Below are positions 9,601 to 32,298 of a stretch of DNA of 64,000 nucleotides, piece after piece. Origin of the DNA: Flavobacteriales bacterium. Lineage in GTDB: Bacteria; Bacteroidota; Bacteroidia; Palsa-965. The translations under genes were made by a program, and so were the position numbers. The notes under the pieces are model-generated. The model was not told where the DNA came from, made no database searches, and saw only the letters and a list, made by a program, of their open reading frames with translations. The stretch covers positions 64,001 to 128,000 of the forward strand of contig JBEIPA010000009.1 in NCBI GenBank assembly GCA_040377305.1, read 5' to 3'. The stretch's first letter is position 1; each line of letters starts with the position of its first letter.

Positions 9601-9728
9601 AAACCGACTCAAGCGAACAAGCGAAGCGTCTAATCATTCCGTCTGAAAGCCTAATGGACATTCAGCCGGAAAGGAAGGACGCATAAACGAGACCGCGCGA
9701 AGGCGCAGCGCGCAAGATTGCAAGTTGC
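9601..9728 (+). repeat. imperfect direct repeat, copy 1 (copy 2 at 10564-10711)
   Basis: Shared AAACCGACT..AATCATTCCG..TGAAAGCC..CCGGAAAG.AAGGACGC..ATAAACGAGAC.GCG.GAAGGCGCAG..CGCAAGATTGCAAGTTGC. Confidence 0.9.
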
Positions 9729-10563: not shown

Positions 10564-10770
10564 AAACCGACTTTTTGGTTAAAATAAAGGACTAAACCCA
10601 AGCGCGCCCAATCATTCCGGATGAAAGCCAAAAGGCATCAACCGGAAAGAAAGGACGCGGAAGCGAAATAAACGAGACTGCGTGAAGGCGCAGCGCAAGA
10701 TTGCAAGTTGCCGGTAAACTTTCGTAAACCGGCAACTTGCAATCTTGCTGGGGACACCCCAGACCCGCTA
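10564..10770. other. repeat copy 2 plus 21-bp inverted repeat; oriT-like region
   Basis: GCAAGATTGCAAGTTGCCGGT-N12-ACCGGCAACTTGCAATCTTGC followed by TGGGGACACCCCA; ATCTTGC resembles the MOBP nic core. Confidence 0.45.
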
Positions 10771-10835: not shown

Positions 10836-12572
10836 TTAAACGATTGACTTAATCGATGCCTGTCCAAACCAATTTCCCAATTTAGCCAGTGCACCTGCAG
10901 AAAGTTCTTGAGTAAAAAGAATTGCTAAGCGCTGTTTCGGCCGAGAACATGCAACATAAAACAAATTTCTGTTCTCTTCGAAATTTGCCTGTTGATCCGC
11001 GGCAATTGCGGTTCCTGCACGTTCCAACATTTTGTTGAAGTTATATTTGCTCCACCCCCGGCCTACAACTACGAGAACATTCTCGAATTCCGCTCCTTTT
11101 ACACCATGCTTTGTCGAGAATGGACTATAGTCATTAACGTATTTAGAAAGTGCAATAATTTCACTGTAGGATACGCTTCTGAATTTCTCGTTGTGTTCAA
11201 CCTTTTTCTTGAGTTCTTCTCCGGCATCATCAGTTGCCTTTGCAATTGCATGTTCGTTAATTTCGATCTTATCTGATAAGCGAGGACGCATACATTCTTT
11301 CAGGTGATCAAGCACTTCACCAATTGAAGCGTTGGAGCGAAGCACATCAAGTTTCTTCATATCCTCTGCCCATTTCAATTTATCATCATGTGAATTAACA
11401 TGAACAGTGCGCTGATCCATCACGCTAAACATTTGACCGAATCGCTTATTTGCATACGCCTGAGATACTGGCTCGAGCGTATCCAAAAAGAAAGCTATGT
11501 ACGGATCTTCCTTCTTGATAAACTGATCGGTGTTTGAAAAAAGATCCGCAATGCCTTTATATCCTTGCTCACTAGCCAACCCCTTGTGTGTTAGCATGAG
11601 GATTTTCGACTTGCTGGAAGTGAAGTCCCATCCTTCGCTTGCCAAGCGAGCTTTCAATTCTTCTAGATAACGATGTGATTCTGCTGCCGGTAAATCACCC
11701 GCCCAATGCGCACCAGTCAATCTTGATCCCGTCCAACCATTGGTGTGGTACACCGTAACTTCCCCCAAGTTTTCCTCGTCACTAACGTTCTGCGGAAGTT
11801 CGGGACGCATCCTATTAAGACTATCTACGATTTTCTTAGCCGATCGGAAATTGGCTTTTTTCCCAATCATCTTCAGGTTAGCATGTTCGATTTTGCCACA
11901 GCCGTTTCCGTATATTTTTTGCCAATGATCTCCAAAGAACCCCAAAAGAGGGCCTTCGTTCGTACCTAGAAAGTGCGTCTTAATTGCTTCTACGACATTT
12001 GCATCAGTATCCTGATATTCGTCAATAAAAATGACTGGAAATTTATCCGTGACGATGAAACGAAACTTTTTTTCTTTGAGAAATTCTACGAGAATCCGTA
12101 AAATGTCATTGTGACTTAACCAAATTTCCGACTCCGTTATTTTGGGGTAGCCGAGATCATAGGATATTTTGCGTGAACCAACTTCCACAACTTCAGCCTC
12201 TGTCAATCGCTCCTGCCAACTTCCAATAGAAGGAAGGATCTTTCGTAGTGCTGATTGATAATCTTTAATGATCGCCCAACTGAACGCATGAATTGTTGAA
12301 GAGAAAATAGCCGGATGACTATCAGTTCGGGAAGCAATTTCGTTACTCGCAACGTTGGTATAGGTTATACACGCGATCTGTTGTTTATTACGAAGCATCG
12401 CTTTCCCGTGCTCTTTAATGAGAAAACGTAGAGCGTGAACCAAGCTATATGTCTTACCGGCTCCAGCGCCCGCCTCTAGGACAAAACTCTGTCTGTGGTG
12501 AATGCACGCAAAAACACTTTCTAATGCTTCCTTTGCGGCAATCTCTGCTGGACTTATTTTTTTCTCTATCAT
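10836..12572 (-). CDS. gajB: Gabija GajB, UvrD-like helicase
   Basis: EAGAGAGKT, ITYTN, IDEYQD, FGDHWQKIY, KHGVKGAEF, YVACSR; 4-bp overlap with the OLD nuclease gene. Confidence 0.85.
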   Translation of the reverse strand: MIEKKISPAEIAAKEALESVFACIHHRQSFVLEAGAGAGKTYSLVHALRFLIKEHGKAMLRNKQQIACITYTNVASNEIASRTDSHPAIFSSTIHAFSWAIIKDYQSALRKILPSIGSWQERLTEAEVVEVGSRKISYDLGYPKITESEIWLSHNDILRILVEFLKEKKFRFIVTDKFPVIFIDEYQDTDANVVEAIKTHFLGTNEGPLLGFFGDHWQKIYGNGCGKIEHANLKMIGKKANFRSAKKIVDSLNRMRPELPQNVSDEENLGEVTVYHTNGWTGSRLTGAHWAGDLPAAESHRYLEELKARLASEGWDFTSSKSKILMLTHKGLASEQGYKGIADLFSNTDQFIKKEDPYIAFFLDTLEPVSQAYANKRFGQMFSVMDQRTVHVNSHDDKLKWAEDMKKLDVLRSNASIGEVLDHLKECMRPRLSDKIEINEHAIAKATDDAGEELKKKVEHNEKFRSVSYSEIIALSKYVNDYSPFSTKHGVKGAEFENVLVVVGRGWSKYNFNKMLERAGTAIAADQQANFEENRNLFYVACSRPKQRLAILFTQELSAGALAKLGNWFGQASIKSIV

Positions 12573-14632
12573 GACTTCGCCTTTTTAACTGTTGTCTTCT
12601 TTGGCGGCGGAGCAGAAGCTATAGGTGCAGCAGGAAGGGCTGCAGCTACAGGATTTTCTGCCAACCACAACAAACCATCAGCTATATATCGCGGGGTTGT
12701 CCAAGTTGTATTAGTAATTGCCCATTGGAAAGCAAACGTTGTTTTATCAATGTTCTGTGCCTTATCGTATGCATCCTTTTCCTTTTCCAAATCAGTAGTT
12801 CCGGTGAGTGGAATTAAAGATTGATTTGCCAAGATAAACGCATCTTCAAAACTGCGTCCACATGCGGTCGAACTATTCTCTGGAATCTGATATGCAAGAC
12901 GTCGATAGTGTGAGGTTTTATCGCCAGCACTTTTTCCTTTAAGAACAGTGGGAGAAATACTAGTGTCGGCAAACCATTTTTTGATCGTGGTGTTACTTGT
13001 GTGTGTACCAACGCTCACTTCACACTTTGCGCCTCCAGCACCATTTACAGAATCAATATCCGTGATGGTTAACGTTTTAAGCTGAAGAAAATCCAAAAGT
13101 CTAAAAAATATGTGCGCATACGCACCACCAACTTCTATGATAGAAACATATTGACTGGACAATTTGTGTCCGGAAGTGATTCCTACATCTGTCTTTGAAA
13201 TCATTGTTGGTAAGAGTAACCGCTCTGTAGCTCCTTCTATCAGAATCGCCTTGTCTGCAAAAAACAGATCACATTTGGTCAGGGTGATGTACTTATGTAA
13301 AAACTCCTTTTCGGCAGCCCACGCTGCGTCTGTAATTCCATTTCTTAAGTCCTTGATCTCCGTTTGTGCAACACCACCTGACCTGGAACTTAGAAAATAA
13401 CGAATAGACTCAAAACTTGATTCATTCGCAATGTGAGTGGAATGTGTCGTTATGACGAACTGTACTGGCCATTTCTTACCCGCGTTAAATTCCTTTTCAA
13501 ACTCACGAGCAATCTCATGAATTTTGCGAATAAAGACCTCTTGCATTTGCGGGTGCAGATGAGCTTCCGGCTCTTCAATGAACACTAGATGAATGCTTGG
13601 TGCAGTCGGCAAAGCCTTATAGGCCTTGAAGAACTCTAGTATCTGAAAGAGTATGTAGATGAGGTTCCGAGAACCCAACCCATTGTATGTTTCGGGTAAG
13701 CTGATTCCTTCTGCTGTTGCGTATCGGATTTTTGTATTGTCGCCTAGCAATCGTTCGACGTCCAACGAAGTTTCAGTTTGAATGTTGGGATCGCCAAGTC
13801 CCGGATAACCAAAAATTGAGAGAGCGGGAAGAAGTTTGTCAGCTTGCCGTGAGAAATCACTGTCTAACTTTTCTTGAATACCCTGCACTGCTGTTCTTAA
13901 CGCCTCAACTGTTGCCTTATCTGTTGCATCAGCTTCTTCTGAAGATGCCGCTCCAAGCAAACGCTGTAATATTTTCCCCAGTAGGTCTTTTTCCTTTTGT
14001 GTTGAATCGTCCAGCCCTCGCTGTGCATGAATAAAACCGGTCATCAATACCGACCGCAGATCGGATAACTCAAGACTTTTCTCATTCGTGAGGTCTGCCG
14101 GATCAATCGCTTTTACCGTTGTGACGTACCTTGATGAAATGCGATCCCTGATCTCTCGAAAAAATAGTTTCTTTTGCTTCACACTATCCTTTTCTTCCGC
14201 GCACTTCAGATCTTTGAACAACTCATCAATTCCGCCATCCTGCAAGCGATACGAAATTAAAGCGACCGCATCATGAGAACCCGAATCGAGATTAATGACA
14301 AAAGCTCCAAGCGGACCAAGTGATGCGCTGGTTGTGTCATAATTGAAGGTGATTCGAACTTCAATTATGGGAAGAACTTCCCGTATATCTGGTTCCGGCG
14401 CTTCAGCCACCCTCAATTGATACGCCTTCCAAAAGTCTTCGTGAGCAGATATTGAAAAATCCTCAAGAGTAAATCGAGCGGAAGTATCCGATAAGAATCG
14501 TTTCAATAATTCTGTGAAGCACGTCTTCCCCGAATTGTTTCTCCCAACAATGACTGTCGTCTCATCCTCCAAAGAGAGATGTACATCCCGGAGTATTCTG
14601 AAATTCTTAATTTCTACCTTTTGAATTTTCAT
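12569..14632 (-). CDS. gajA: Gabija GajA, OLD-family ABC-ATPase/TOPRIM nuclease
   Basis: GRNNSGKT, IEEPEAHLHPQ, TTHS, FFADKAILIEGATE, ITDID. Confidence 0.88.
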   Translation of the reverse strand: MKIQKVEIKNFRILRDVHLSLEDETTVIVGRNNSGKTCFTELLKRFLSDTSARFTLEDFSISAHEDFWKAYQLRVAEAPEPDIREVLPIIEVRITFNYDTTSASLGPLGAFVINLDSGSHDAVALISYRLQDGGIDELFKDLKCAEEKDSVKQKKLFFREIRDRISSRYVTTVKAIDPADLTNEKSLELSDLRSVLMTGFIHAQRGLDDSTQKEKDLLGKILQRLLGAASSEEADATDKATVEALRTAVQGIQEKLDSDFSRQADKLLPALSIFGYPGLGDPNIQTETSLDVERLLGDNTKIRYATAEGISLPETYNGLGSRNLIYILFQILEFFKAYKALPTAPSIHLVFIEEPEAHLHPQMQEVFIRKIHEIAREFEKEFNAGKKWPVQFVITTHSTHIANESSFESIRYFLSSRSGGVAQTEIKDLRNGITDAAWAAEKEFLHKYITLTKCDLFFADKAILIEGATERLLLPTMISKTDVGITSGHKLSSQYVSIIEVGGAYAHIFFRLLDFLQLKTLTITDIDSVNGAGGAKCEVSVGTHTSNTTIKKWFADTSISPTVLKGKSAGDKTSHYRRLAYQIPENSSTACGRSFEDAFILANQSLIPLTGTTDLEKEKDAYDKAQNIDKTTFAFQWAITNTTWTTPRYIADGLLWLAENPVAAALPAAPIASAPPPKKTTVKKAKS

Positions 14633-14719: not shown

Positions 14720-15307
14720 CTATCCACTCCCTAACAGATTAATCAATTCTTCCCTTTTCTTATCCAGTAATGTATCAATACGCTGCCCAATTGCAAATGA
14801 CCAGGTTTCTACAGAAGCATTGTTCTTATCTACAAACTCCATAGTCATTCGCAGGACACGGCTTACCTCTTCTGTTGCCCGTTGTGGGTTAAGTTCGGGG
14901 AGATCAACTGAAATTTCAATCTGATTGGAATATGGGACAATTACACCACGATCAGAAGAATAATATGAGAATCCTTCTTCAGGAACGTGACTAAACAGCT
15001 CCCGATCGCCGGTAAATGGAATGCTGATTTCGTGAATAAAATGGTTGGGGCTCACACCTCCAACAAGCATCTGGGTATGGGTCAAGGGGACTTCTTGAAA
15101 ATCATGATCGACAAACTGCGGCTTTCCGAGCACTACGCGAGTCAGGACTACGGCATTTCTGATACGTTGCTTTGTACGTTCGAAAGCTTTATCCTCTTGA
15201 ACGTCCTTTAACTTCAGACTGTTGATCAGAGAATTTATCTGCGATTCTCGCTCCTTTTTTAAATTTGAAAAGTGCGGAAGAGCATGTGGCGAAGTAAAAT
15301 TACTCAT
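14720..15307 (-). CDS. hypothetical 195-aa protein
   Basis: Clean ORF 12 nt after the upstream gene; IPFTGDRELF motif; helical C-terminus. Confidence 0.75.
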   Translation of the reverse strand: MSNFTSPHALPHFSNLKKERESQINSLINSLKLKDVQEDKAFERTKQRIRNAVVLTRVVLGKPQFVDHDFQEVPLTHTQMLVGGVSPNHFIHEISIPFTGDRELFSHVPEEGFSYYSSDRGVIVPYSNQIEISVDLPELNPQRATEEVSRVLRMTMEFVDKNNASVETWSFAIGQRIDTLLDKKREELINLLGSG

Positions 15308-15319
15308 GCGTCGATATTA

Positions 15320-15541
15320 TTAAAGTGGAGTTGACGGAGGTTCAACAATTACTTCTACAGGAAAGCCCTCCCACTTGCCGGCATCGAGATGACTCTGCAC
15401 CGCCGCGACATTCTTCTCTGCTGCAACACCGACCTCGATGTAATCACCTGATCCACGCGTTCGCGTTGATATACTAGTGACGAACTCGTTTGAAATAATG
15501 AGAGCCTCTAGTGCCTTCTTCGATTCCTTAATGTTTTTCAT
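15320..15541 (-). CDS. small protein resembling a standalone Nal1-type protease N-terminal domain
   Basis: Start MKNIKES 5 nt after the protease stop; V.SI...G..YIEVGV...GKWEGFPVEV pattern. Confidence 0.6.
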   Translation of the reverse strand: MKNIKESKKALEALIISNEFVTSISTRTRGSGDYIEVGVAAEKNVAAVQSHLDAGKWEGFPVEVIVEPPSTPL

Positions 15542-15546
15542 ATTGC

Positions 15547-16485
15547 TTACTGTAAAAGTTTCCACGTTTGAAGTTGGTCAGCGACTAGAACACCTGGGTT
15601 CGCGCTAGTTCCCGTCTCACCACCGGCAAAGAGTAGGCCGACGAAATCGCCATTATCTCCGAAGATAAATGATCCTGAATCACCTCCTTGCGAGAACTGA
15701 TTGCCACCATTTATATCTGTAATCAGCAGCTGATCCACGAATAAGGCAAGCTGTCCGTTATAATTCACTCGGAAGGAGCGGTCATCTGCCTGCACAATTC
15801 CTCGTGTTCCTCCAGTAGTTGCACCAAATTTTGTGACAATTTCCCCTTGACGTGGATGATGATAATTGACGTATCCACCTATAGCAACCTGCTCGTCTGA
15901 ATCAAGTTTTGCAACCGCGAGGTCGAGCACATTCGCATGTCCATGATATCGGATCGGCACAAAATTCTGCAGGTTGCCAATATGTCTACCATCATTCCCA
16001 ATCTTGAATACATCATCCCCGATTGCAGCATCATTGCAATTTGCGAGGACGTGATTATTACTAACAATGTGAGAAACCTTATTCCGGTTTCTGTCTATTG
16101 TGAAGCCGCCTAGAGTACCCCAGGTTGGTAGTGCCTGATGTGCGACTCGATCTCCTACCTGAAGAGCAGCGAACTGAGGAACGTCAATTACAGCGTTGCG
16201 CACAGAAATCTGCATTGGATTAAGACCAAACTTGCGCGCAATGTCATTTTTCACGCAACTACAAGAATGACCGTTGCATATTTGCGCATCGAAGACGAGC
16301 TGAAGCATAGAGCCACGGATCGTGCATACACTTAATAATAAGTCGCCATAGTTGGCGCCGCTGAAGTTGCGTGTTTTGCCGTAGAATGATTCAGATATGA
16401 ATCCAATGCTTTCGTTGGCCAAAGATGAATATGAAGGTTGAAGTGCGCTTCTGAAATAGTCGCGTGCGTTGTAGAGTTGTTTCAT
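15547..16485 (-). CDS. trypsin-like (S1, Nal1-like) serine protease, no signal peptide
   Basis: GTLGG, SNNHVL (His), DLAVA (Asp), K.GATTG.T.G, GGDSGS (Ser), GLLFAG. Confidence 0.88.
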   Translation of the reverse strand: MKQLYNARDYFRSALQPSYSSLANESIGFISESFYGKTRNFSGANYGDLLLSVCTIRGSMLQLVFDAQICNGHSCSCVKNDIARKFGLNPMQISVRNAVIDVPQFAALQVGDRVAHQALPTWGTLGGFTIDRNRNKVSHIVSNNHVLANCNDAAIGDDVFKIGNDGRHIGNLQNFVPIRYHGHANVLDLAVAKLDSDEQVAIGGYVNYHHPRQGEIVTKFGATTGGTRGIVQADDRSFRVNYNGQLALFVDQLLITDINGGNQFSQGGDSGSFIFGDNGDFVGLLFAGGETGTSANPGVLVADQLQTWKLLQ

Positions 16486-17036: not shown

Positions 17037-17846
17037 TTATCGCTCACGCCGATAGTGTTTTGTCTTGTGTCGTTTGGAGGTTGACGCTTCCCATGTTAAT
17101 GCATCGGGGAGCAATTTATTGAAGCGGTACTTTCGCTGATCATGAAGTACACCATAAATCTTCCCGCCACGTTCATACGTTTGCATTCCTTGCTTGCCTA
17201 ACAATGAATAAAACTCTTCTGGAGAAGATGATTGCTGTCGGCATGCTTGTATCACGTTCCTCACTTGCGTGCGCTTGCTTACTTTTCCTGCTCGCCCCAT
17301 TAATTGGACATCCGAATCCGCAAGTGTCTGCGACCTCCAACCGTGACGTACTACCGATCTAGACAGTTCCGGGAACTTCTCAATTTGATAGTGTTGAAAG
17401 TTCTTCTTCAGATCGGTCAGTTCCTGTCGCGACATCCGCATACTCTTTCCGGTACGGTATTCAATCGCAGAAGAACAGACATGGACATGAACATGGTAGC
17501 GGTCGAAGTGCGGCACTGCAACGTAACACCCTTTTGGATTCCGCATCTTGATATATTGTCTTATCAGCAACGCAAGTTTTTCCTGAGTGAGATGCTTCGT
17601 GTCGTCTCTATGAAAGGAAATAATCTCGTGATTTAGGTAAACAGAATTGGAGCGTTTACGAAGCCGGTGCTTCTCATTTTCCTTGAAGGATTTTACCCAA
17701 TCTTCAATGGCTGTGCCCCGAACATTATGCTTGATCACAAAACTTTTTCCGTGAGAGTCAAACAACCGTTCATCGTTATCAATCATGTAACGGAGTAGGT
17801 ATTCAAACTTAGGTCGTTTGTGAGTCAGGATTTTTACGAGCGGCAT
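17037..17846 (-). CDS. relaxase (MOBP/VirD2-like)
   Basis: N-terminal LLRYM tyrosine, HEIISF, PHFDRYHVHVH HUH motif. Confidence 0.85.
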   Translation of the reverse strand: MPLVKILTHKRPKFEYLLRYMIDNDERLFDSHGKSFVIKHNVRGTAIEDWVKSFKENEKHRLRKRSNSVYLNHEIISFHRDDTKHLTQEKLALLIRQYIKMRNPKGCYVAVPHFDRYHVHVHVCSSAIEYRTGKSMRMSRQELTDLKKNFQHYQIEKFPELSRSVVRHGWRSQTLADSDVQLMGRAGKVSKRTQVRNVIQACRQQSSSPEEFYSLLGKQGMQTYERGGKIYGVLHDQRKYRFNKLLPDALTWEASTSKRHKTKHYRRER

Positions 17847-18396
17847 TGTTTATTATCGTTAGTAATCGTTCTCTCAGTGCAGCGTCGGTTCGTGCGGCTT
17901 CACTCACCGCCACTTCGAGCATAGATGGAAAATCAAAAAGGTTGCGGATCTCCGTTTCCATGCGCGTAATGCGCTCTTCAATTACTGAGTACTTTTCTTC
18001 AATCGTGAAAAGAGACACCCTGCTTCTTATTTCAGTAATAACCCGAATGTCGTTCAGACATGATTCCAATAATGCGGCGAGTTTTCCAACGAGGACATTA
18101 TTTGGAATTAGGTATTTGCGTTCGATGTACGCGATCGTGGCCAATCGGAGGAATGCAGTAACGCTCATCTTGTGTCGTTTCGCTGCAGTCAAAACTTTGC
18201 CATAGTCACCATTGTGTTTTGATAGCTGAACCATAAACTCAGGTTTAACCTTGCGAAGCTGACTTTTGTATTCCCGCATATACACCTTGCGGTATTGGCG
18301 GCGCACTCCTTGTATTTCTTCTGGTGTTCCATTATTAAGAACGCCCGACGCTTCAAGGAACTGCCACAATGCATGGTGTTTCCCCTTCTTACTCAC
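17809..18396 (-). CDS. MobC-like relaxosome accessory protein
   Basis: Directly upstream of and overlapping the relaxase; AAKRHKMSVTAFLR RHH-like segment. Confidence 0.55.
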   Translation of the reverse strand: MSKKGKHHALWQFLEASGVLNNGTPEEIQGVRRQYRKVYMREYKSQLRKVKPEFMVQLSKHNGDYGKVLTAAKRHKMSVTAFLRLATIAYIERKYLIPNNVLVGKLAALLESCLNDIRVITEIRSRVSLFTIEEKYSVIEERITRMETEIRNLFDFPSMLEVAVSEAARTDAALRERLLTIINNAARKNPDSQTT

Positions 18397-19835
18397 GAAC
18401 CGTAGTTATTAGTGCCCAGAGGTAGCATAGAAATTGATTGTGCAGCATCACCGCGCATAATTGGGGGCTGTATAGCCATATACGCGCGATAGCGAAACGA
18501 TTTGTACGCAGGTCGCACATGGGCTAGGATCGGCGGATGTGAGCCGCAAATAAGCAATGCGCGATTAGGCTTGAGCATTCGAATTGAATCGTTGGTAAGC
18601 AGTGGAACAATCTCGCGCTTGCCATCTTCAGTCTTGTGTTCAGTCTTACCGAGAATGTCCGACAGTTCCTTCGTCGCTTCTAATCCGCCACCACCGAAAT
18701 ACACTTTTGAAGAACAGTTCGTGCGAATCGTTTCTGCATCTGCCTTGCCGTATGCATTCACAATTTGATTGAAGTCTTGAACTATCGCCATGAATCCGGC
18801 GCGGAATTTTCTGACGTTCGCGAATGCCGCAGGAAGTACCGGTACTTTCGCCATTGACCCGAATTCGTCGATGAGCATGAAAATATTCTGCTCATCATCT
18901 TCCGGAAAACGCGAAAGTAAATAACCTGTGAGTTGCTCAAAGAAAATCGCGTTGAGTACGCTGAAGTATGCCATGTCGCTTATTGATGACTGCAAGTAAA
19001 GAACGGTCGGTCGTTTTCTAAATTCAGAAAAATCAATCGTGTCAGTTGACGTAACACGTGCGACTGTATCATTCGCGAACAGCGTCAATGCAGACTTTGC
19101 CGAGGCGATAATTGAGGTAAGCAATTTATCATCGTATGTGATGAACGATTTATATTCGTTATACAATACTGGATCTGCGTAACGAACAAATAGAGCGTCA
19201 ATTGGATTGCTCGAACCTTCGTCAGACTTTTCGCCGAGCTGATTGAGCAATTGTCGAACATTATACAGATTCTGAAACTCCTTGCTTTGTGTCTTTAAGA
19301 TGGCAAAAAGTATTGCTAGCAATGTCGTTGCTTGGGTCTCCCAGAATGGGTCGGAGGTCTTGCCACCTGATAGTGAAGTACGCACGAGCATCGCTGCAAG
19401 TTTTTGTATCTCGTTCTGACTTTTGGCACGACTCAATGGATTAAATCCGCACGAGATGTCGGCGTTTCCGAAGTGAAGTATTTTTACAACATATCCTTCC
19501 TGTTCCAAATACCCGGCACTCGCCTTGAACAATTCGCCACTGGGATCTGCGACAAAAAAAGAACCACGCATTGCGAACAAACTTGAGAGTGCAGTTACCT
19601 GGCTCTTTCCGGAACCACTTTGTCCTGTTACTAGGCAGTTGGTGAAGGAGTCCTTGACAGTTATTTGCTTGCGCCCTGTTAATGAAAATCCTTTGTTCCA
19701 TCTCGAAAGTAGTACGCCTTCAGAAGCGAACTTTGCGTGATATCCTTTTTTGTCAGACGATCCAAAAAGCATCGACAGTAACTCGAAGAGTATTTTGAAT
19801 ATGGTTTCAACTATAGAGGTAAGGATTTCAAGCAT
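18393..19835 (-). CDS. type IV coupling protein (VirD4/TraG family)
   Basis: N-terminal hydrophobic helix; GQSGSGKS, DPSGEL, DPFW, LIDEFG, IVQDFNQ..YG. Confidence 0.9.
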   Translation of the reverse strand: MLEILTSIVETIFKILFELLSMLFGSSDKKGYHAKFASEGVLLSRWNKGFSLTGRKQITVKDSFTNCLVTGQSGSGKSQVTALSSLFAMRGSFFVADPSGELFKASAGYLEQEGYVVKILHFGNADISCGFNPLSRAKSQNEIQKLAAMLVRTSLSGGKTSDPFWETQATTLLAILFAILKTQSKEFQNLYNVRQLLNQLGEKSDEGSSNPIDALFVRYADPVLYNEYKSFITYDDKLLTSIIASAKSALTLFANDTVARVTSTDTIDFSEFRKRPTVLYLQSSISDMAYFSVLNAIFFEQLTGYLLSRFPEDDEQNIFMLIDEFGSMAKVPVLPAAFANVRKFRAGFMAIVQDFNQIVNAYGKADAETIRTNCSSKVYFGGGGLEATKELSDILGKTEHKTEDGKREIVPLLTNDSIRMLKPNRALLICGSHPPILAHVRPAYKSFRYRAYMAIQPPIMRGDAAQSISMLPLGTNNYGS

Positions 19836-19840
19836 GGTGA

Positions 19841-20026
19841 TTATTGTTTAGCGTGTACTTTCTCTTTAAGCCATTTCGCAAGTGCTGTGAAAATCGCTGC
19901 GAGCAATTCGCAGATTGTCCAAAACAGAAACAGTAGTAGTCTACCGACGAGCTTGATCAGGAATACAAACAGCTTTCCTAACATTCTGAGAAGCCACTTG
20001 CAGATCGACCGAAGAATTTCCTTCAT
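19841..20026 (-). CDS. small hydrophobic membrane protein
   Basis: 61-aa amphipathic/hydrophobic ORF tightly packed in the operon. Confidence 0.6.
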   Translation of the reverse strand: MKEILRSICKWLLRMLGKLFVFLIKLVGRLLLFLFWTICELLAAIFTALAKWLKEKVHAKQ

Positions 20027-20046
20027 GTGTCATAAGTTTGGAATGG

Positions 20047-20802
20047 TTAGGGATTTAGGTTAGCCGAAACGCTTACCGTTGCGCCTTTGCTTGAGAAAAA
20101 ACCTCTGTAAAAGCGCGACACAATGGCGAACGAGGCGTCATCAGCAATGTCGCGAGGCGAGAATAAAATTCGGATCTCAATTTGATCAAGCTGATTGAGC
20201 GGTTCCTGTTTCTCAAACATAGCTGCTACTTGTGCTGTGTCTGTTTGCATCAACGCCAATGTCTGCTTATTGTAAAATGAAAGGAGAGAAGTATTTTCTC
20301 TTAAATCTGTAAACAGCAATGCGATTTTTTTATTGGAGTTTGACGTTGCCAGATCATTCAAGGCATTTGCTATAGGAACATAGAGGGCGGACTGATTTTT
20401 TCCGATTGTGTCCATCGCCAACGAGTCCAAGAAGTTTGTTACGCTATTCTGGAATAATTCAATTTCTCGCTCCCTATCGAATTGATTGGTCAGAGCATTT
20501 TGAGCTGAAGCCGGCAATTCGAATATGGTTTCTTCATTGAGTCGGATATCGCTGATAAAGCTGAACTTGAAGATTGCGCCGCTGGCGGGATCGGTACTCA
20601 GGTTGTACAATGCCAAAATTTCCTCAGCTTCTGGTATAGGTTGATGAGGTTCAGTGATGTCCCATAGCACGACAATTTCAGTAGTACGTGGCTTTGAAGT
20701 CGTACAGGAGTCACACCATAGAAGAACTCCAAGCGACACTAGCGCAAGCCCAAGAGCTACCAACAAAAGTCCATTGGTTATTTGAAAGGTTTTGTTTTTC
20801 AT
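20047..20802 (-). CDS. membrane-anchored vWA-like protein
   Basis: N-terminal TM; IVVLWDITE and IALLFTDLREN strands. Confidence 0.55.
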   Translation of the reverse strand: MKNKTFQITNGLLLVALGLALVSLGVLLWCDSCTTSKPRTTEIVVLWDITEPHQPIPEAEEILALYNLSTDPASGAIFKFSFISDIRLNEETIFELPASAQNALTNQFDREREIELFQNSVTNFLDSLAMDTIGKNQSALYVPIANALNDLATSNSNKKIALLFTDLRENTSLLSFYNKQTLALMQTDTAQVAAMFEKQEPLNQLDQIEIRILFSPRDIADDASFAIVSRFYRGFFSSKGATVSVSANLNP

Positions 20803-21851
20803 GACAGGTTAGATTTAGAGATCGTTAATGATGTAGTCGATTCGAAGAAGCAGACTGGAGTACCCAGATCTCCACGTGTTGCGAGGTTTTCAGTTTTGAA
20901 TATTTCGATTGCCTCGCGGTAGTGCGCATCTATTCGCTCTTCCGTTGCTTTTGCAACAGCAAGAACGTGCAGGTACTTTTTCTCTTCATCGGTAAACTGT
21001 GCAGCGAGTTTTTCCTTCTCGCTTTTTAGCTGCTTCATTTCAGCTTCGCGCTCCTCTATTCGTTTGTGTAATTCGGAAGTAGCGCAATCGAAATTCTGTT
21101 GCTTTTGAGAAGGTATCAGTAAGCGTGAAAGGACAATTGCTCCGACGAGAAAGGCTATGTTCACAAGAAAGAACACCCATGCTGGTGTTTCAATGGAGGA
21201 ATTATCCAGGATATTCGAGCGAAGCACGGACATAGCGATTACAATGCCGAGGTTCGCTGCGACATACAAGGCAGTCTGCAAATAAGGTTTCTCTATTCCC
21301 TCCTCAATCTTTGCCAGATTTTTTCCAGTGGCGTAAGCCAGTGCTGCTTCAATAAGTGTTATCGTCGCGCCAATTAGGTACGCGCCAAACATGTTGCCTC
21401 CAAAAAATGCGAAGGACATAGAGTTATAGAACCACTCACCGAGATACATGATGCCAAGTAGAACAAGAAGAAATGGGTTTCGTTTTCTGATTGTTGGTTT
21501 TGGTTTGCCATCCAAGGTTCTTCTATCAACGTCATTCAAGTGTTCATTCTTCTCTGTTGCAGCATCCAGTTCAATTTCGCGCTTCACTTTTTCTTCTTTG
21601 AAGCGTGTAAATGTTGCCTCCTGCATAACAGGTTTAATTCTTCCGAGTTCCTTGGCGAGAAGCTCTTCAAACGATGACTTGTATCGGCCAACATACGGCA
21701 TGAGGGACTGCTCGTTCAAAGTCGGGCGATTCTTCTTTGCGAAAAATGCACCATCCTTCTTGGCTTCGCGTTTCACCGCGTTTGCGATGTCGAGAATATT
21801 CTTGTCTTGTTCCGGATCGAATGATCCATACGTGATTGTGTCTTTTGACAT
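20799..21851 (-). CDS. 4-TM membrane protein flanked by coiled coils
   Basis: Likely start MSKDTIT avoids overlap; central TM block. Confidence 0.7.
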   Translation of the reverse strand: MSKDTITYGSFDPEQDKNILDIANAVKREAKKDGAFFAKKNRPTLNEQSLMPYVGRYKSSFEELLAKELGRIKPVMQEATFTRFKEEKVKREIELDAATEKNEHLNDVDRRTLDGKPKPTIRKRNPFLLVLLGIMYLGEWFYNSMSFAFFGGNMFGAYLIGATITLIEAALAYATGKNLAKIEEGIEKPYLQTALYVAANLGIVIAMSVLRSNILDNSSIETPAWVFFLVNIAFLVGAIVLSRLLIPSQKQQNFDCATSELHKRIEEREAEMKQLKSEKEKLAAQFTDEEKKYLHVLAVAKATEERIDAHYREAIEIFKTENLATRGDLGTPVCFFESTTSLTISKSNLS

Positions 21852-21864
21852 GAGTGATGAGTTT

Positions 21865-22317
21865 TTAATGTGAGACTTCGTGTGATTGATCATTTCCTTC
21901 TTTGCGACGTCGGGATTTATGCAAACCATTGGCTTTCGTTTTGTCAGATACCTCTGAGGAGCGATTGGTTGCCGCGGCACTTTGTTCGATCACCGGTGCA
22001 GGAGCATTGTGGATGATCATTTCCTTAGTGAGTCGTTGCTCAAGTTCACGAATCTGCTTTTTGAGCTGATACAAGTTCGATGTACGTTCGAAGAGCTCGT
22101 TTTCCTTGAGATCAATTGCAGACAGAACCGGCTTTTTGTTCTCGTCGTAATCAAGCAGTTTGATAAACGCGATTGGTGTTTTTGGTTCGCCCGGAAGACC
22201 GCCCATCACCGCAATGATGTTTTCACCTTTGGTCCAGTGGCCCTTCTCGTGATACTCGATCTCCGTCGGTAACTTACGAGGTTGCTTCTGATTTTCATTT
22301 TGGTTTTCTGTAGTCAT
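21865..22317 (-). CDS. hypothetical protein, tandem paralog 3
   Basis: K..IAFI...YD..K......D...EL.....L..LK..IR motif. Confidence 0.7.
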   Translation of the reverse strand: MTTENQNENQKQPRKLPTEIEYHEKGHWTKGENIIAVMGGLPGEPKTPIAFIKLLDYDENKKPVLSAIDLKENELFERTSNLYQLKKQIRELEQRLTKEMIIHNAPAPVIEQSAAATNRSSEVSDKTKANGLHKSRRRKEGNDQSHEVSH

Positions 22318-22375
22318 TGGTTTGAGATTTATTTTGTGAATTGCTAATGATCAAGTTCAAGTTCTGTGCATACAT

Positions 22376-22717
22376 TCAGATTTCTTTTCCTTCTTCCTTG
22401 CCGTCATCTTTTTCATTGCGCGTCTTACCTAATTCCATTGCGCGCCGTTCGAGCATTTCAGCGATGGCAGACCATATTTGCTGTGAGGTTTCCTCGTCCG
22501 ATACTGGCGGTCCGATTATCCGACCAGAGGGATCAAGCAGGGTGTATGTGACTTTGCCGTCACGGGTGATCTTGCGGATAGTCTTACCGAGGAACACCAT
22601 TTTCCCTTTCGTCGGTGATTTGTAAGAAACTTCTGCGATCTCCACATCATCACCTGCGTCTTGGTACGGACTCGGTGTGCTTTTCTGTTCTTCGGGATTC
22701 TCACCATTCGTTTTCAT
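22376..22717 (-). CDS. hypothetical protein, tandem paralog 2 (divergent)
   Basis: GKMVFLG..I.....GKVTYTLLDPSGRII. Confidence 0.65.
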   Translation of the reverse strand: MKTNGENPEEQKSTPSPYQDAGDDVEIAEVSYKSPTKGKMVFLGKTIRKITRDGKVTYTLLDPSGRIIGPPVSDEETSQQIWSAIAEMLERRAMELGKTRNEKDDGKEEGKEI

Positions 22718-22728
22718 GATTTCGTCTT

Positions 22729-23136
22729 CTATCGGGTTCGTGACTTTGTTCGTGATGCGTTGGATCGCAATGATGTGAGCTGCCTCAGTCGATTCCGCTC
22801 TTCAGTAGCAAAATCCTGTTGCAACGCTTGCTCTTTGAGGTTTACTTGTTCATGAAACACATTCTCACTTCTGCGTATTTCATTTTTGAGATGCGTAAGG
22901 CTGTAGTTTGCTGGAACGATCTCCTTGCCATCAACATCGAAAGTCCTATATGACTTCTTGCCTGCGTTGGCATCATAGTCCTCGCGTATGTATGCAACGA
23001 CAGCCTTTCGTCCACCAGGGCGATCCATAAGGACCGTTGCGACCTCACCCGTTATTGAGTTTTTGTACTCTGCGAATGAAATTGCACTTTCAGAATGTAG
23101 AGGTTGACTCTTTGAATGGTTGTCCTTATGGTGCAT
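22729..23136 (-). CDS. hypothetical protein, tandem paralog 1
   Basis: GRKAVVAYI..YD...KKSY..FDVDGKEI.....L..LK..IR. Confidence 0.7.
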   Translation of the reverse strand: MHHKDNHSKSQPLHSESAISFAEYKNSITGEVATVLMDRPGGRKAVVAYIREDYDANAGKKSYRTFDVDGKEIVPANYSLTHLKNEIRRSENVFHEQVNLKEQALQQDFATEERNRLRQLTSLRSNASRTKSRTR

Positions 23137-23214
23137 TAGTCTTTCGTTTTTGTAGTGGTGAATACTTCATTGCTGTGCGATCATAACTCTGTTCAAAATG
23201 ATTGCAAGTCCTGA

Positions 23215-24627
23215 CTACCGTTCTATTGTGAGTTTCTTTTTTTGCTGTTTTTTGGATTGAATGATTTCTTCTTCTCCGTCTCCAAACACCGTGAAATCTT
23301 CGAGTGAGGAGGCTAAGGCAACTTGTTTTTCGTCGATGTAATTCCGGAGTACTTGTTCACCCGAATGACCTGATATTGGCCGGATATCTGCGCCCATACG
23401 AATTTTTAAAGCCGTCATCACCACTTTGCGTAACACCTTAAATGTTTTCAGTGGTTTGTCGGGATGAGCGACTTTCCAGAAATGAGAGAAGCCTCGGGAG
23501 AGAGCCGATTTGACAGTGGGAACTCGGTTGGATGTAATTTCTGGCGCTATTATGAATTCATTAGAATTGCGTTTCTCTTGTAGACCCTGTTCATAGAGAA
23601 ATCTGGAAATTTGATTGGTAACCGGTGAATGCAACTTTCGTTCTTTGCCTTCGGCTGTATGTAAAATGCGCGAGACCTTAAAATCAGTGAATTCAATGAG
23701 CAGCGGTTTACCATTTGGATCGCAGTGCACATCAGAAAAGCGCGCCATGATTAGTTCTTCAAGTCTGCGACCAGTTAGAGCAAAACGAAATGCTGTAATC
23801 AGGTAAGGGCGGAAGTGGTTACGAGTTCGTTCGTGTTTGCCAATTCCCTTTTGAAATCCGTTTTCATAGGTGATAACGGACAGAACTTTTTGGAACTCTT
23901 CTTTTGTAATTACTTCTGGTCTTGGTGTTATTGTTTTTCGGGGTACGCGTTCAAAGAATCGCTTCACATTCCCATACTCTTCGCTTTCAGCATAAGATGC
24001 GAACGTGGTGAGAGTACTAAACCAGCGATTGTAAACTGAGTCGCTGTATCCTTTCTCGATTAGATAATCATGAAACTTGCCTACTACGTTGTCGTTTATT
24101 TCGTTCAGCTTGAATTGTGTAGTATCAATTCTAGCTGCGTGAAGTGCAAGCACGAAATTTTTGAAACAACTTTTGACGTCACTGATGTGAGATTTCGAGC
24201 GAATCAATCTCAGGTGAGGTGCAACTCCTTCTCCTTTTAGTGTTGCTAGGTATTTGCCGAAAGTGTGAACGAGTAATTCGGGTTTAGCACCCGTATGTGG
24301 TACGGGTGCCTCAGCAATCGTAGTTTGTCTTTTGGGAAGTCTCTCTTCGATTTCTCCCGCATCAAGTTTTTGCCTTAGTGTTGCGACTTGCTTCACCGCT
24401 TCCGAGAAGTCAGTGCCTAGTGACCGTACAATTCGCTTCTTAGTCCCTGGGATGAATCCAACAAAACGGTACTGCAGTTTTTCAATGTGTGAACATTCAG
24501 AAAGGGGCTTTGATTGGCAAGTCTTCACCATCGTCTTACAATGACCACACCAGATTCGCATGCACGGTATGTGTGCATTTGCTTTTAGTTGTATGTATTT
24601 CTTTTTGCTCATGCGGCGATGCATCAT
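23215..24627 (-). CDS. tyrosine recombinase / integrase
   Basis: ALTGRRLEEL (R), DFKV (K), TFKVLRK, SGHS, RNY (Y); SAM-like middle region. Confidence 0.88.
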   Translation of the reverse strand: MMHRRMSKKKYIQLKANAHIPCMRIWCGHCKTMVKTCQSKPLSECSHIEKLQYRFVGFIPGTKKRIVRSLGTDFSEAVKQVATLRQKLDAGEIEERLPKRQTTIAEAPVPHTGAKPELLVHTFGKYLATLKGEGVAPHLRLIRSKSHISDVKSCFKNFVLALHAARIDTTQFKLNEINDNVVGKFHDYLIEKGYSDSVYNRWFSTLTTFASYAESEEYGNVKRFFERVPRKTITPRPEVITKEEFQKVLSVITYENGFQKGIGKHERTRNHFRPYLITAFRFALTGRRLEELIMARFSDVHCDPNGKPLLIEFTDFKVSRILHTAEGKERKLHSPVTNQISRFLYEQGLQEKRNSNEFIIAPEITSNRVPTVKSALSRGFSHFWKVAHPDKPLKTFKVLRKVVMTALKIRMGADIRPISGHSGEQVLRNYIDEKQVALASSLEDFTVFGDGEEEIIQSKKQQKKKLTIER

Positions 24628-27313: not shown

Positions 27314-28417
27314 TTACTGCTTAACAAGCTGCCTGAACAGTCCCGACACTTCCCTTGCCTGATCAATGTTCGAAATTACAAGCCCGGTCGACGAACCATT
27401 CCAGAACTTCTGTACTGATGCAGGAAGGCTTTTCACTTCAGCCTTCTTGACCATCTTGCGTACGGATTTTTCTTCCGCTTTTACAACCAAGTACATCGAG
27501 TTCTTCCTGAAATGGAAAAAGCAAAGGTTCTTACCTGCAACTTTTTTCATGGAGATGTAATGTCCACCGGCCGCATTAAAGGTTAGCTTCTTGTCGAGCT
27601 TTAAAGCGTCTCGTTTCAGGTTCTCGTAAATCGACTTAACGATTGGTGACCCTTTAGCAAAATGGTGCTCTTCGGTGTGGGTTACTTTGGGTTTCGATTC
27701 CTTCGGAACAAGCTGCGGCTTTGCCTGAAGCTCACTCAGCGTGGGATGCAACGAAAGAATGTTTGTTTTCCCTGCAAGAAACTTACGCACGTACAACACA
27801 TCAAGAATACCACCCCAGGTTTCAGCATACGCTTTTTGGGCTATCGGCAGTTCTTTGAGTGGATCTTCAGTAACAAGTAGACAACGCGGCGCATTAAGTA
27901 ATGTTTCTGCGAGCAAATCTTCCAATCGCTTGCCCTTCATATGCTGATGTACCAGCTTGAGAAATGCCTTGTCCTTCTCGATACTTTCCTTCATGAAGAC
28001 AATGAGTTGACTCATTGTTATTACATCACGAACCACTGAGAACAGATGCGTCATGAACGGAAAGAAGTCCGAATAGAAATCCTTGCCGTTACCGAGAATC
28101 ACACAAAGAAAGTAGCAGCGCGGAGCCGTCGGCGTTGTGAAGTCAAACAAAACGTTTGTATTCTGGAACGGGACACTATCCGGAACCGACATTTTCCATC
28201 CGACTGTTTTTTCTCCAAAGAGCGCACGGCGATTACCGAAGACAAGCTTTGCAAATTCCTCCTCGGACTTGAACGGCTTTGCAACAGGTTGCGAAGATTC
28301 AGGCAATTCAGGGAGTAGTGACAGCTTACCTTCTTTCGCGATCATAAATACCCTGCCGAAGGGATCGGTGTTTAGCGAGGGCTGAGCAATGGTTTTAGAA
28401 GAACTTAGTTTTTTCAT
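27314..28417 (-). CDS. DUF5655-domain protein with degenerate nuclease-like N-terminal domain
   Basis: FKSEEEF..LV N-terminal motif; TEEHHF..IYENL..HYISMK..NLCFFHFRK C-terminal domain. Confidence 0.65.
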   Translation of the reverse strand: MKKLSSSKTIAQPSLNTDPFGRVFMIAKEGKLSLLPELPESSQPVAKPFKSEEEFAKLVFGNRRALFGEKTVGWKMSVPDSVPFQNTNVLFDFTTPTAPRCYFLCVILGNGKDFYSDFFPFMTHLFSVVRDVITMSQLIVFMKESIEKDKAFLKLVHQHMKGKRLEDLLAETLLNAPRCLLVTEDPLKELPIAQKAYAETWGGILDVLYVRKFLAGKTNILSLHPTLSELQAKPQLVPKESKPKVTHTEEHHFAKGSPIVKSIYENLKRDALKLDKKLTFNAAGGHYISMKKVAGKNLCFFHFRKNSMYLVVKAEEKSVRKMVKKAEVKSLPASVQKFWNGSSTGLVISNIDQAREVSGLFRQLVKQ

Positions 28418-28609
28418 GGCTTAGTTGAATTGGTCTAAGCACATGGATAACTCCAAAGCCACGTGAAGTCAAATCACGATACCAGAAGGAAGCACAATTC
28501 CGATGCAGTCAAATGTGACGTACCCTGTTCAAAACTCTCACTGCGTTACGGGAGTAGAAATGAGGTTCAATTGCTTATATCGGGTACTTTTGTAGCCCAT
28601 TTTGACAGC

Positions 28610-29455
28610 ATGATCACTGTAACCCTGAAAGGTCGTATCGACACATCCTATTACGGATACAAGAAGCTAACAAGCTTCTATCAGGAATGTGCTGATCATA
28701 CCAATGACACCATTCACATGAACTTATATGATCTGGAATGGATCGACGGAAATATGTCAGCTTTTTTCGATGCAGTACTCTACAAATTACACAAGGAAAA
28801 TGGGCTTCGATTTGCGACGGACTTTGAATTTGTTAAGAAGAAGTTTGACGTGTTGCTTCGCAATGGGTTCTTAGATATCGGAGAGAAGATTGAGGACGAT
28901 CGCAAGAGTACAATTCCTATGAAGAGTTTTGCTACCAGCGACAAGAAGGGATTTATCGACTATGTTGAGGGTGAGCTGATGGAGCATCGCGGAATGCCTG
29001 CATTGGAGGCAAAGGTCAAAGAGCAAATCATCCAAGACTTGATCGAGGTCTTCTGTAACTCTCATCATCACGCAAACACCACAGATCCTTTCTTCGTTGC
29101 GGGCCAGTACTATCCCCGACTGGGTGAATTGCGATTCACTATGGTCGATCTTGGCGATGGCTTTTTGCCGCGCATCAATAAAGCAACAAACGGCAAGATT
29201 AATACATCACTGGACGCTATAAACTGGGCGATTATCGGAAACAGCAGTAAGCGTATTTTAGAGAAAACGTCTGGAGGACTAGGCTTGCAGAATATCCTCA
29301 AGTACTGCCAGGAAACAGGGGGGAATTTGGACATTGTGACAGGTGACGGATACTGGTCATCTGGATATACCGGAACAATTTTCGAGGGTGGAAGGGATAT
29401 GGGGCCTCATGCATTTGTGGGTACAACCCTCAATTTGACGTTCAAATCGGCTTAA
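28610..29455 (+). CDS. STAS-like plus GHKL/HATPase protein (RsbW/SpoIIAB-like kinase)
   Basis: Start MITVTLKG; EVFCNSHHHA (N box), DLGDGF (G1), GGLGL (G2), GTTLNL; no DHp His box. Confidence 0.85.
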   Translation: MITVTLKGRIDTSYYGYKKLTSFYQECADHTNDTIHMNLYDLEWIDGNMSAFFDAVLYKLHKENGLRFATDFEFVKKKFDVLLRNGFLDIGEKIEDDRKSTIPMKSFATSDKKGFIDYVEGELMEHRGMPALEAKVKEQIIQDLIEVFCNSHHHANTTDPFFVAGQYYPRLGELRFTMVDLGDGFLPRINKATNGKINTSLDAINWAIIGNSSKRILEKTSGGLGLQNILKYCQETGGNLDIVTGDGYWSSGYTGTIFEGGRDMGPHAFVGTTLNLTFKSA

Positions 29456-29570
29456 AGCCCTCAGAATTAACGAACGCGTGTTGATTTTTTTGCTCATTCT
29501 CTTGACTTCACATACTTTTGCCGCCTATATTTGAAACAAAGCACGGTTTTTGAGCGTTATAGATTTAGAT

Positions 29571-29900
29571 ATGAGAGTGGTTAAAATAGCCGATATCGTA
29601 AAAGACGATCTCGCGATTTATCACGACGAGGGTTTGAGGGTTTATGAGTTTATGTCTCCTGCCTTGATTCGTGGGGAGAAAATCGAGATTTCTTTTGTGG
29701 GAACTGCGCGCTGTTCAACGCAATTTTTGAACGCGTCAATAGGCAAGCTGTATTTGGACTTTGATCCAAAGCAGGTGGATTCCCTAGTGTCTTACAACTA
29801 CGGCGAGGTCAATCTCCTCCGCGAAAAGATCGCGGAAGTGAAGGACAACGCAATCCATTCAAAGGATTACGATCAGTTCGTCGGGAATGCTTCTGCATAA
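29571..29900 (+). CDS. STAS-like domain protein (DUF4325-type)
   Basis: A...DEG..VY......GEKIEISF.G...STQFLNASIGKLY. Confidence 0.85.
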   Translation: MRVVKIADIVKDDLAIYHDEGLRVYEFMSPALIRGEKIEISFVGTARCSTQFLNASIGKLYLDFDPKQVDSLVSYNYGEVNLLREKIAEVKDNAIHSKDYDQFVGNASA

Positions 29901-29906
29901 CCAGTC

Positions 29907-30539
29907 GTGGCATATCACATTTCCCACCTGGATAATGTGACGCTGCAAAAACAGCAGTACTTTTTCGACGCCAATATGTGGATTAAACTCCTCAGGCCGC
30001 CATTTGATTTAACGCCGCGGGATAAAAAGTATTTGACTTTTTTTGAAAAGTTCAAGGGTAGCGCAGCCAATCCTAAGATTGCCGTGACTTCTCTTGTATT
30101 AAGCGAGGTTATCAATCGTATTATGCGTGAGGTTGCTATGCGAAAATACATTAAGGACAATGTCGTAGCGGAGAAGGACGTGGTGCCTGGCTACTACAAG
30201 CAGGTGTACCGCAAGACTGATCATTTCAAAGGTCAGTACGCACTGTTGTGTGATGATATCAAGGACTATCACAACAAGTACGAGTTCATTTCGGACTCAC
30301 TTGGTGACGGCATCAAAACGAAGGATATTCTCTCTAATCCTGCTCCGGGGCTCGACTTCAATGACGGCTACTATGTGTTGCTTGCAAAGCATTATGGATT
30401 TCCGATCGTCACAGATGATGGTGATTTCTTTGTTGAAGATGTACAAATCATGACGTACAACAACGCGCTCTATCAGAAGGGTAAGGATGCAATTGTGGTG
30501 AAACCAGCGACAGGTGAAGCACCTCCGGCGACCGCGTAG
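29907..30539 (+). CDS. PIN-domain ribonuclease
   Basis: FFDANMWI, VLSEVINR, LDFND, IVTDDGDF; acidic residues intact. Confidence 0.88.
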   Translation: MAYHISHLDNVTLQKQQYFFDANMWIKLLRPPFDLTPRDKKYLTFFEKFKGSAANPKIAVTSLVLSEVINRIMREVAMRKYIKDNVVAEKDVVPGYYKQVYRKTDHFKGQYALLCDDIKDYHNKYEFISDSLGDGIKTKDILSNPAPGLDFNDGYYVLLAKHYGFPIVTDDGDFFVEDVQIMTYNNALYQKGKDAIVVKPATGEAPPATA

Positions 30540-32244: not shown

Positions 32245-32296
32245 AGCGTCGGACTCATAATCCGTTGGTCCCAGGTTCAAATCCTGGTGGGCGCAC
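32245..32296 (+). pseudogene. 3' fragment of tRNA(CAT) (Ile2/Met), probable attR
   Basis: CGGA-CTCATAA-TCCG anticodon arm, CCAGG-TTCAAAT-CCTGG T arm, TGGGCGCA acceptor 3' strand; 5' acceptor strand and D arm absent. Confidence 0.85.
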
Positions 32297-32298
32297 AG

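Follow-up and report, generated by a model that had tools for sequence, protein, structure and literature searches.

The three-gene locus at positions 28,610–30,539 of the window, the whole 64,000-nucleotide stretch of Flavobacteriales DNA that was analysed, is almost certainly, to judge from its gene order, profile matches and conserved residues, a Bacteroidota member of VapKSC, a system composed of a STAS-GHKL kinase (VapK), a STAS antitoxin (VapS) and a PIN nuclease (VapC) (Chambers, Rani, Min, Villa, Corbett, EMBO J 2026, PMC13373217; PDB 9Z7O). That paper had already described the system in 2026, together with its structure and its activity against phage (PMC13373217), and the mechanism reported there, in which a kinase switches a PIN nuclease in defence, very probably extends by analogy to the copy in the window. 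The original prediction for this DNA had proposed that a kinase/STAS switch gates the PIN nuclease in defence, which is essentially what that paper describes; the novelty that it implied is lost, since the triad corresponds to a characterised system.

The three genes and their published counterpart

All three open reading frames lie on the forward strand, as had been described: vapK at 28610–29455 (281 residues from an ATG; a STAS-like domain and a SpoIIAB-type GHKL kinase domain), vapS at 29571–29900 (109 residues from an ATG; a DUF4325 STAS antitoxin with a C-terminal helical tail) and vapC at 29907–30539 (210 residues from a GTG; a PIN-domain nuclease). The gap between vapK and vapS is 115 nt long, and 6 nt separate the vapS stop from the vapC start. 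For vapS, the TTG at 29550 reported by the ORF finder reaches beyond most homologue starts, and the ATG at 29571 was taken. The vapS product matches Pfam DUF4325 (29.6 bits, cut-off 23) and the vapC product matches Pfam PIN (26.3 bits, cut-off 23.6), while scans of the Pfam and NCBIfam libraries gave no match for the vapK product. The second gene therefore encodes a standalone DUF4325 STAS protein, as had been read from the letters, and its CSTQF motif occupies C48–F52.

What is known of the family comes from the member of Escherichia E4736 (PMC13373217). Its VapC is toxic and loses the toxicity in D28A; VapS rescues the toxicity, and VapS with S48E or with a deletion of 94–116 does not. In the crystal structure, 9Z7O, VapS and VapC form a 2:2 complex in which S48 is buried in the interface. 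The operon gives roughly 2-log protection against phage Bas42, and this protection is lost with D28A, S48A or VapK F54A. In the same paper the activation of VapK by ssDNA is modelled, VapS phosphorylation and the RNA target are inferred, VapK is described as insoluble, and activation by ssDNA is demonstrated for the related kinase CapK. A literature search for 'VapKSC' returned solely PMC13373217 and its preprint.

The link to this member is carried by profile searches with the second and third genes of 42 loci, which had been fetched via a kinase alignment. A profile of 39 STAS proteins has a single PDB match up to E 1, Escherichia VapS (9z7o_A, E 6.7e-16, positions 2–109 of 111), and a profile of 39 PIN proteins likewise has only Escherichia VapC (9z7o_C, E 3.7e-11, positions 4–188 of 193). 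Single-sequence searches of the PDB gave E 0.12 for VapS with phmmer and no relevant match up to E 1 for VapC. VapS T50, within the CSTQF motif, aligns to the phosphosite S48, and VapC D21 aligns to the catalytic D28. Of 52 triad loci, 51 have Ser or Thr in the T50 column and all 52 retain the acidic VapC residues D21, E67, D150, D153, D171 and D173, in keeping with the earlier description of the third gene, 6 nt downstream, as a PIN nuclease with intact acidic residues. The truncated STAS proteins of L001 and L021 (alignment A2), the PIN protein of L023 (A3, A4) and that of L003 (A4) were left out.

The window locus thus shares with the published system the gene order, a kinase with STAS and GHKL parts and no HTH, a Ser/Thr phosphosite, a short VapS C-terminal helix and an equivalent VapC catalytic Asp; both of its small proteins are homologous to 9Z7O chains, and Bacteroidota members are included in Dataset EV3 of PMC13373217. 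It differs in belonging to a subclade distant from the Escherichia member, in having Thr for Ser at the phosphosite (either is allowed in PMC13373217) and in a VapS tail that is shorter by about five residues.

Conservation of the triad, which the original prediction had put forward as a check, is borne out: of 42 related loci, 39 have the genes in K-S-C order on a single strand. The profiles behind this count were built from the same 42 loci, and a tblastn search that started from the window proteins, which avoids this circularity, agrees with it. The exceptions are L001, in which the contig ends after the STAS gene, L017, with the kinase alone, and L042, with a kinase fragment. The kinase is in two pieces in L037 and L041, and L021 has a truncated STAS. 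In the phylum sample, a kinase match occurs in 23 of 401 genomes, the own genome included; the 20 regions fetched represent 21 of 25 non-self places, the remaining four being among the weakest, and L044 duplicates L039. Of the resulting 19 independent loci, 12 hold the complete triad, among them every one of the 10 with a kinase E value of at most 1.3e-47, and the rest are four distant kinase and STAS pairs without a PIN of the triad clade, one kinase only and two loci at a contig edge. The genus sample holds the kinase in two of 27 genomes, again counting the own genome, and the second match is partial and distant. The distribution is patchy.

Several of these loci depart from the usual layout. 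Downstream of the distant kinases of L059, L060, L061 and L062 lies a short DUF4325 STAS gene and no PIN of the triad clade; in L060 the STAS gene is succeeded, at a distance of 3 nt, by a 206-residue ORF that has no Pfam match and might encode a further effector. In L021 (10935–11694) the STAS gene is cut to 62 codons and the acidic residues of the PIN are kept, which may reflect an assembly error, a frameshift or decay. The kinase of L017 (10001–14813), intact and of the triad clade yet without STAS or PIN, adjoins a DUF5131 gene and a large restriction-system methyltransferase.

Modelling of the STAS and PIN proteins together, which had been suggested earlier, gave for VapC (residues 1–196) and VapS a score of 0.91 against 0.00 for the best control, and since a similar complex, 9Z7O, is solved, this may express likeness to it rather than binding; the mark for this score is reached by 116 of 157 solved pairs and by 2 of 215 mismatched pairs. 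At least 98% of the contacts are common to the runs, and the partner pLDDT is at least 94. In the model, VapS S49 and T50 are predicted to touch VapC D117, with T50 buried and the VapS tail (93–108) within the interface; the D117 column holds D or E in 36 of 38 aligned PIN proteins.

Accepting the published mechanism, VapS is predicted to bind VapC and block its nuclease. VapK, which is likely switched on by ssDNA arising during phage infection or from damaged DNA, would add a phosphate to Thr50 of VapS, and the phosphorylated T50 would repel VapC D117 and free VapC. The suggested charge repulsion resembles the arrangement at CapS S54, a residue facing acidic residues in the CapS dimer interface (PMC13373217). 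Freed VapC would cleave RNA of the host and halt the infected cell, and vapSC may in addition be transcribed separately from an internal promoter. The absence of an antitoxin, part of the original argument, does not hold: VapB is indeed absent, yet the STAS protein would itself be the antitoxin, with a C-terminal helix that is required in the published member (PMC13373217). Type II VapBC pairs are comparable in that a PIN nuclease is held by a small antitoxin encoded upstream (PMC13373217), and differ in that the predicted antitoxin of the window is a STAS protein, which phosphorylation would release, and not VapB.

The kinase and its signal

The GHKL boxes of VapK, E146/N150/H154, D180-G182-G184 and G225, do not vary across the alignment, which took in 58 of 93 homologues, and N150 is present in 50 of 52 triad loci, the other two being gaps. 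The AlphaFold model (pLDDT 95.5, pTM 0.92) is closest over residues 98–281 to SpoIIAB (1l0o; Z 10.2, rmsd 2.9, 135 aligned), with the next row at Z 7.8; Foldseek with the full model returned GHKL domains only, and the VapK profile found no relevant solved structure in the PDB.

In the AlphaFold model, the N-terminal region of about 95 residues alternates strands and helices as a STAS domain does, and the long helical hairpin of a His-phosphoacceptor domain is absent from it. Modelled alone from the single sequence, this domain is poor (pLDDT 51), and HHalign gave no significant match between the VapK and STAS profiles (probability 2.6%); in the Deinococcus gobiensis homologue, which is 29% identical, the region that aligns scores above the Pfam STAS cut-off. 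The first gene had been described as a STAS-GHKL kinase without a His-phosphoacceptor, and of this the N, G1 and G2 boxes and the lack of the His domain stand, while the STAS part is indicated by secondary structure and by the Pfam match of the homologue. VapK is 32% identical over 277 columns to the kinase of Chryseosolibacter indicus PWU20 and 29% identical over 281 columns to that of D. gobiensis I-0; each of these two lies within a K-S-C triad, and Dataset EV3 lists both strains, the match being by strain name. The Escherichia VapK of Appendix Table S2 (PMC13373217) is colinear by eye with the window kinase across all ATP-binding boxes.

Such a fold would also suit a classical switch of the RsbW/RsbV type, acting on a sigma factor encoded elsewhere, in which the PIN gene is a passenger. 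The closeness of the kinase domain to SpoIIAB is what this reading has in its favour, and it is hardly credible beside the presence of a PIN gene after the STAS gene in 39 of 42 loci, a STAS profile that matches VapS and, up to E 1, no SpoIIAA or RsbV chain, and the lack of any sigma-factor Pfam family among the 23 island ORFs scanned, which agrees with the earlier remark that no sigma factor is linked. With SpoIIAB/SpoIIAA and RsbW/RsbV, the window system has in common a GHKL Ser/Thr kinase fold acting on a STAS phosphosite; it differs from them in the lack of a sigma factor, in the STAS-like sensor domain of the kinase itself and in a STAS protein that would hold a toxin.

Within VapKSC, the sensing of ssDNA by VapK is the least secure step of the mechanism, because the columns of R170 and W44 vary among triad kinases. 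W44 is the likely counterpart of F54 in Escherichia VapK, read by eye and allowing for an offset of five residues in numbering. Likewise by eye, K180 and K181, the residues drawn beside ssDNA in the VapK model (PMC13373217), correspond to R170 and L171, and the R170 column holds K or R in just 24 of 52 triad kinases. The W44 column holds W or F in 38 of the 52, H in four, another residue in six and a gap in four.

The aromatic residue is thus replaced in 10 of the 48 ungapped triad kinases, and the K180/K181 positions, poorly conserved in comparison with the published member, point the same way: in the clade of the window, VapK might be switched on by a signal other than ssDNA, for instance a protein of the phage or a metabolite that binds to the STAS domain, with the release step unchanged. 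That ssDNA activation of VapK is modelled only in PMC13373217 leaves some room for this. It is nevertheless highly improbable, given that 55 of 58 close homologues have W or F at position 44, that the adjacent N48 is invariant among them, and that PMC13373217 reports the loss of defence in F54A and the activation of CapK by ssDNA. An ssDNA-responsive VapK is the preferred reading.

CapK and CapS (PMC13373217; PDB 9Z71–9Z73) resemble the window genes in that a STAS-GHKL kinase precedes its STAS substrate and in having a promoter between the two genes. They differ from the window system in the N-terminal HTH of CapK and in the C-terminal winged helix of CapS, which represses a downstream immune operon, whereas the output in the window would be a nuclease. 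Membership of the CapK/CapS group was considered and rejected, as the window kinase model starts with a STAS-like domain and the 109-residue STAS protein is fully covered by the match to VapS. In D. gobiensis (L043, 5447–5908), the gene immediately before vapK encodes an HTH regulator, an arrangement reminiscent of an HTH-fused CapK divided in two. A possible further relative is the PIN cluster PIN.4, coupled to DUF4325 genes (Matelska et al. 2017, PMC5499597); a kinase and a mechanism are absent from its description in the available text, and the window PIN resembles it in its coupling to a DUF4325 gene.

A scan with PADLOC-DB 2.0 (2023), a library older than the VapKSC publication, gave only weak and partial matches for the kinase (DrmA 7e-4, PDC-M65A 4e-3) and none for the STAS or PIN protein; PADLOC 2.0 does not call the triad, which answers the question, raised with the original prediction, of whether it was already named there.

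The predicted internal promoter and the host element

The Bacteroidota −7 promoter element is TAnnTTTG (PMC6847099). One such box is predicted on the forward strand at 28585–28592, 17 nt before the vapK start, and two more, also on the forward strand, at 29513–29520 and 29526–29533 in the gap between vapK and vapS, where they form a predicted internal vapSC promoter. In 40 close loci, the last 30 nt of vapK together with the gap contain a box in 32 cases, against 5.4 expected from shuffles, although these counts include several close pairs and are not independent. As controls, other co-oriented gaps of 20–135 nt have a box in 18 of 110 cases in the same loci and in 147 of 994 cases in the own genome, the latter with crude ORF calls. 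Among the 12 independent, more distant triads, most of which have short gaps, a box occurs in four (0.5 expected), so that an internal promoter as a family-wide feature was rejected. As a sequence pattern of the close clade, the internal vapSC promoter is supported; the earlier suggestion that the extra boxes at 29513–29533 allow STAS and PIN to be transcribed without the kinase stands to this extent and does not extend to the family. The 115-nt gap with its boxes is a further difference from the published description, and an internal vapKSC promoter is not discussed in the available text of PMC13373217. One RNA run contained a fraction of 0.08 of the words, and its single 227-nt contig on 29692–29918, at a depth of 2.4, shows neither transcription nor a start site.

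The operon is carried by an integrative element of about 41 kb and ends about 1.7 kb short of its right border; the element interrupts a tRNA(CAT) gene and confirms the 'island' of the original description. The right copy of its 19-bp core repeat is at 32250–32268 on the forward strand and precedes the 3′ half of the interrupted tRNA(CAT) gene; the left copy, at G000:C46:54796, falls beyond the window. The 5′ and 3′ halves of the tRNA gene flank the element. A search for direct repeats in window positions 5500–33000 missed the ends because the left core is outside the window. In three genomes of the same genus, the same left-flank gene is followed by an intact tRNA gene.

The element is an integrative mobilisable element, with genes on the reverse strand at 17037–24627 for a MobA/VirD2 relaxase, a VirD4-like coupling protein and a tyrosine integrase (23215–24627), the last with a small upstream ORF. 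It splits the host tRNA(CAT) without restoring the 3′ half (G000:C46:54768–54997; window 32250–32298), and the split pieces match the halves of the intact same-genus gene at 90–93%. About 110 nt inside its left end, the element bears a complete, divergent tRNA(CAT) of its own, 84% identical to the intact same-genus gene and one of the three CAT tRNAs found by ARAGORN in the genome; relaxed ARAGORN output was noise and was disregarded. The split gene, labelled Met by ARAGORN, is probably tRNA-Ile2. One narrow literature search found nothing on a replacement-tRNA element in Bacteroidota.

The same element carries Gabija at 10836–14632 on the reverse strand (GajA E 2e-275, GajB E 3e-255), about 14 kb from the triad and the nearest firmly identified defence system. 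Just downstream of it, at 9683–9728 and 10668–10711, is a near-perfect direct repeat of about 45 nt, with copies 985 nt apart. At 14720–16485 on the reverse strand, a 195-residue ORF that resembles the N-terminal part of the PADLOC candidate PDC-S54 (E 2e-8) adjoins a trypsin-like peptidase gene. Divergent from vapK, at 27314–28417 on the reverse strand, lies a gene for 367 residues without a Pfam match, of which residues 228–324 weakly match the PADLOC candidate PDC-S18 (E 4e-8).

This setting raises the question of whether the module mainly serves the mobile element, by maintenance or addiction or by arrest on ssDNA from excision or transfer, with phage protection as a side effect. The position near the element end, the integrase, relaxase and coupling protein aboard, the promoter box before vapS in the close loci, the lack of a strong defence neighbour within 10 kb of the triad and the general stress signal to which VapKSC may respond according to the Discussion of PMC13373217 would all fit such a role. 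Of the 289 published loci, many of them in Bacteroidota, 64% are likewise without a defence neighbour within 10 kb (PMC13373217). Against an element-serving role speak the 103 of 289 published loci that are near other defence genes, the protection against phage by the published member, which depends on the kinase and the phosphosite (PMC13373217), and the kinase gene kept before vapSC in the triads, though the loci were selected through the kinase. On balance this role is very unlikely, and defence by a kinase-switched nuclease is retained as the probable main function.

A combined view is rather unlikely. According to it, the Bacteroidota subclade of the window has given vapSC a promoter of its own and stocks the pair constitutively, and a kinase whose level is set independently fires on ssDNA from relaxase-driven transfer or excision as well as from phage; VapKSC would then double as an element-maintenance switch on an element that disrupts the tRNA(CAT) gene of its host and brings along a divergent substitute.

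Significance for the VapKSC family

As a discovery the locus carries little weight, and its practical value is modest. Loci of this kind will keep appearing new to annotation pipelines because the kinase is unnamed in Pfam and NCBIfam and the system is uncalled by PADLOC 2.0. Beyond the available account in PMC13373217, the window copy adds a conserved acidic VapC residue that is predicted to face the phosphosite and the pattern of an internal promoter. Further VapK orthologues like that of the window are candidates for experiments on kinase activation, for which the Escherichia VapK proved insoluble, and on the RNA target, which PMC13373217 gives as an inference.
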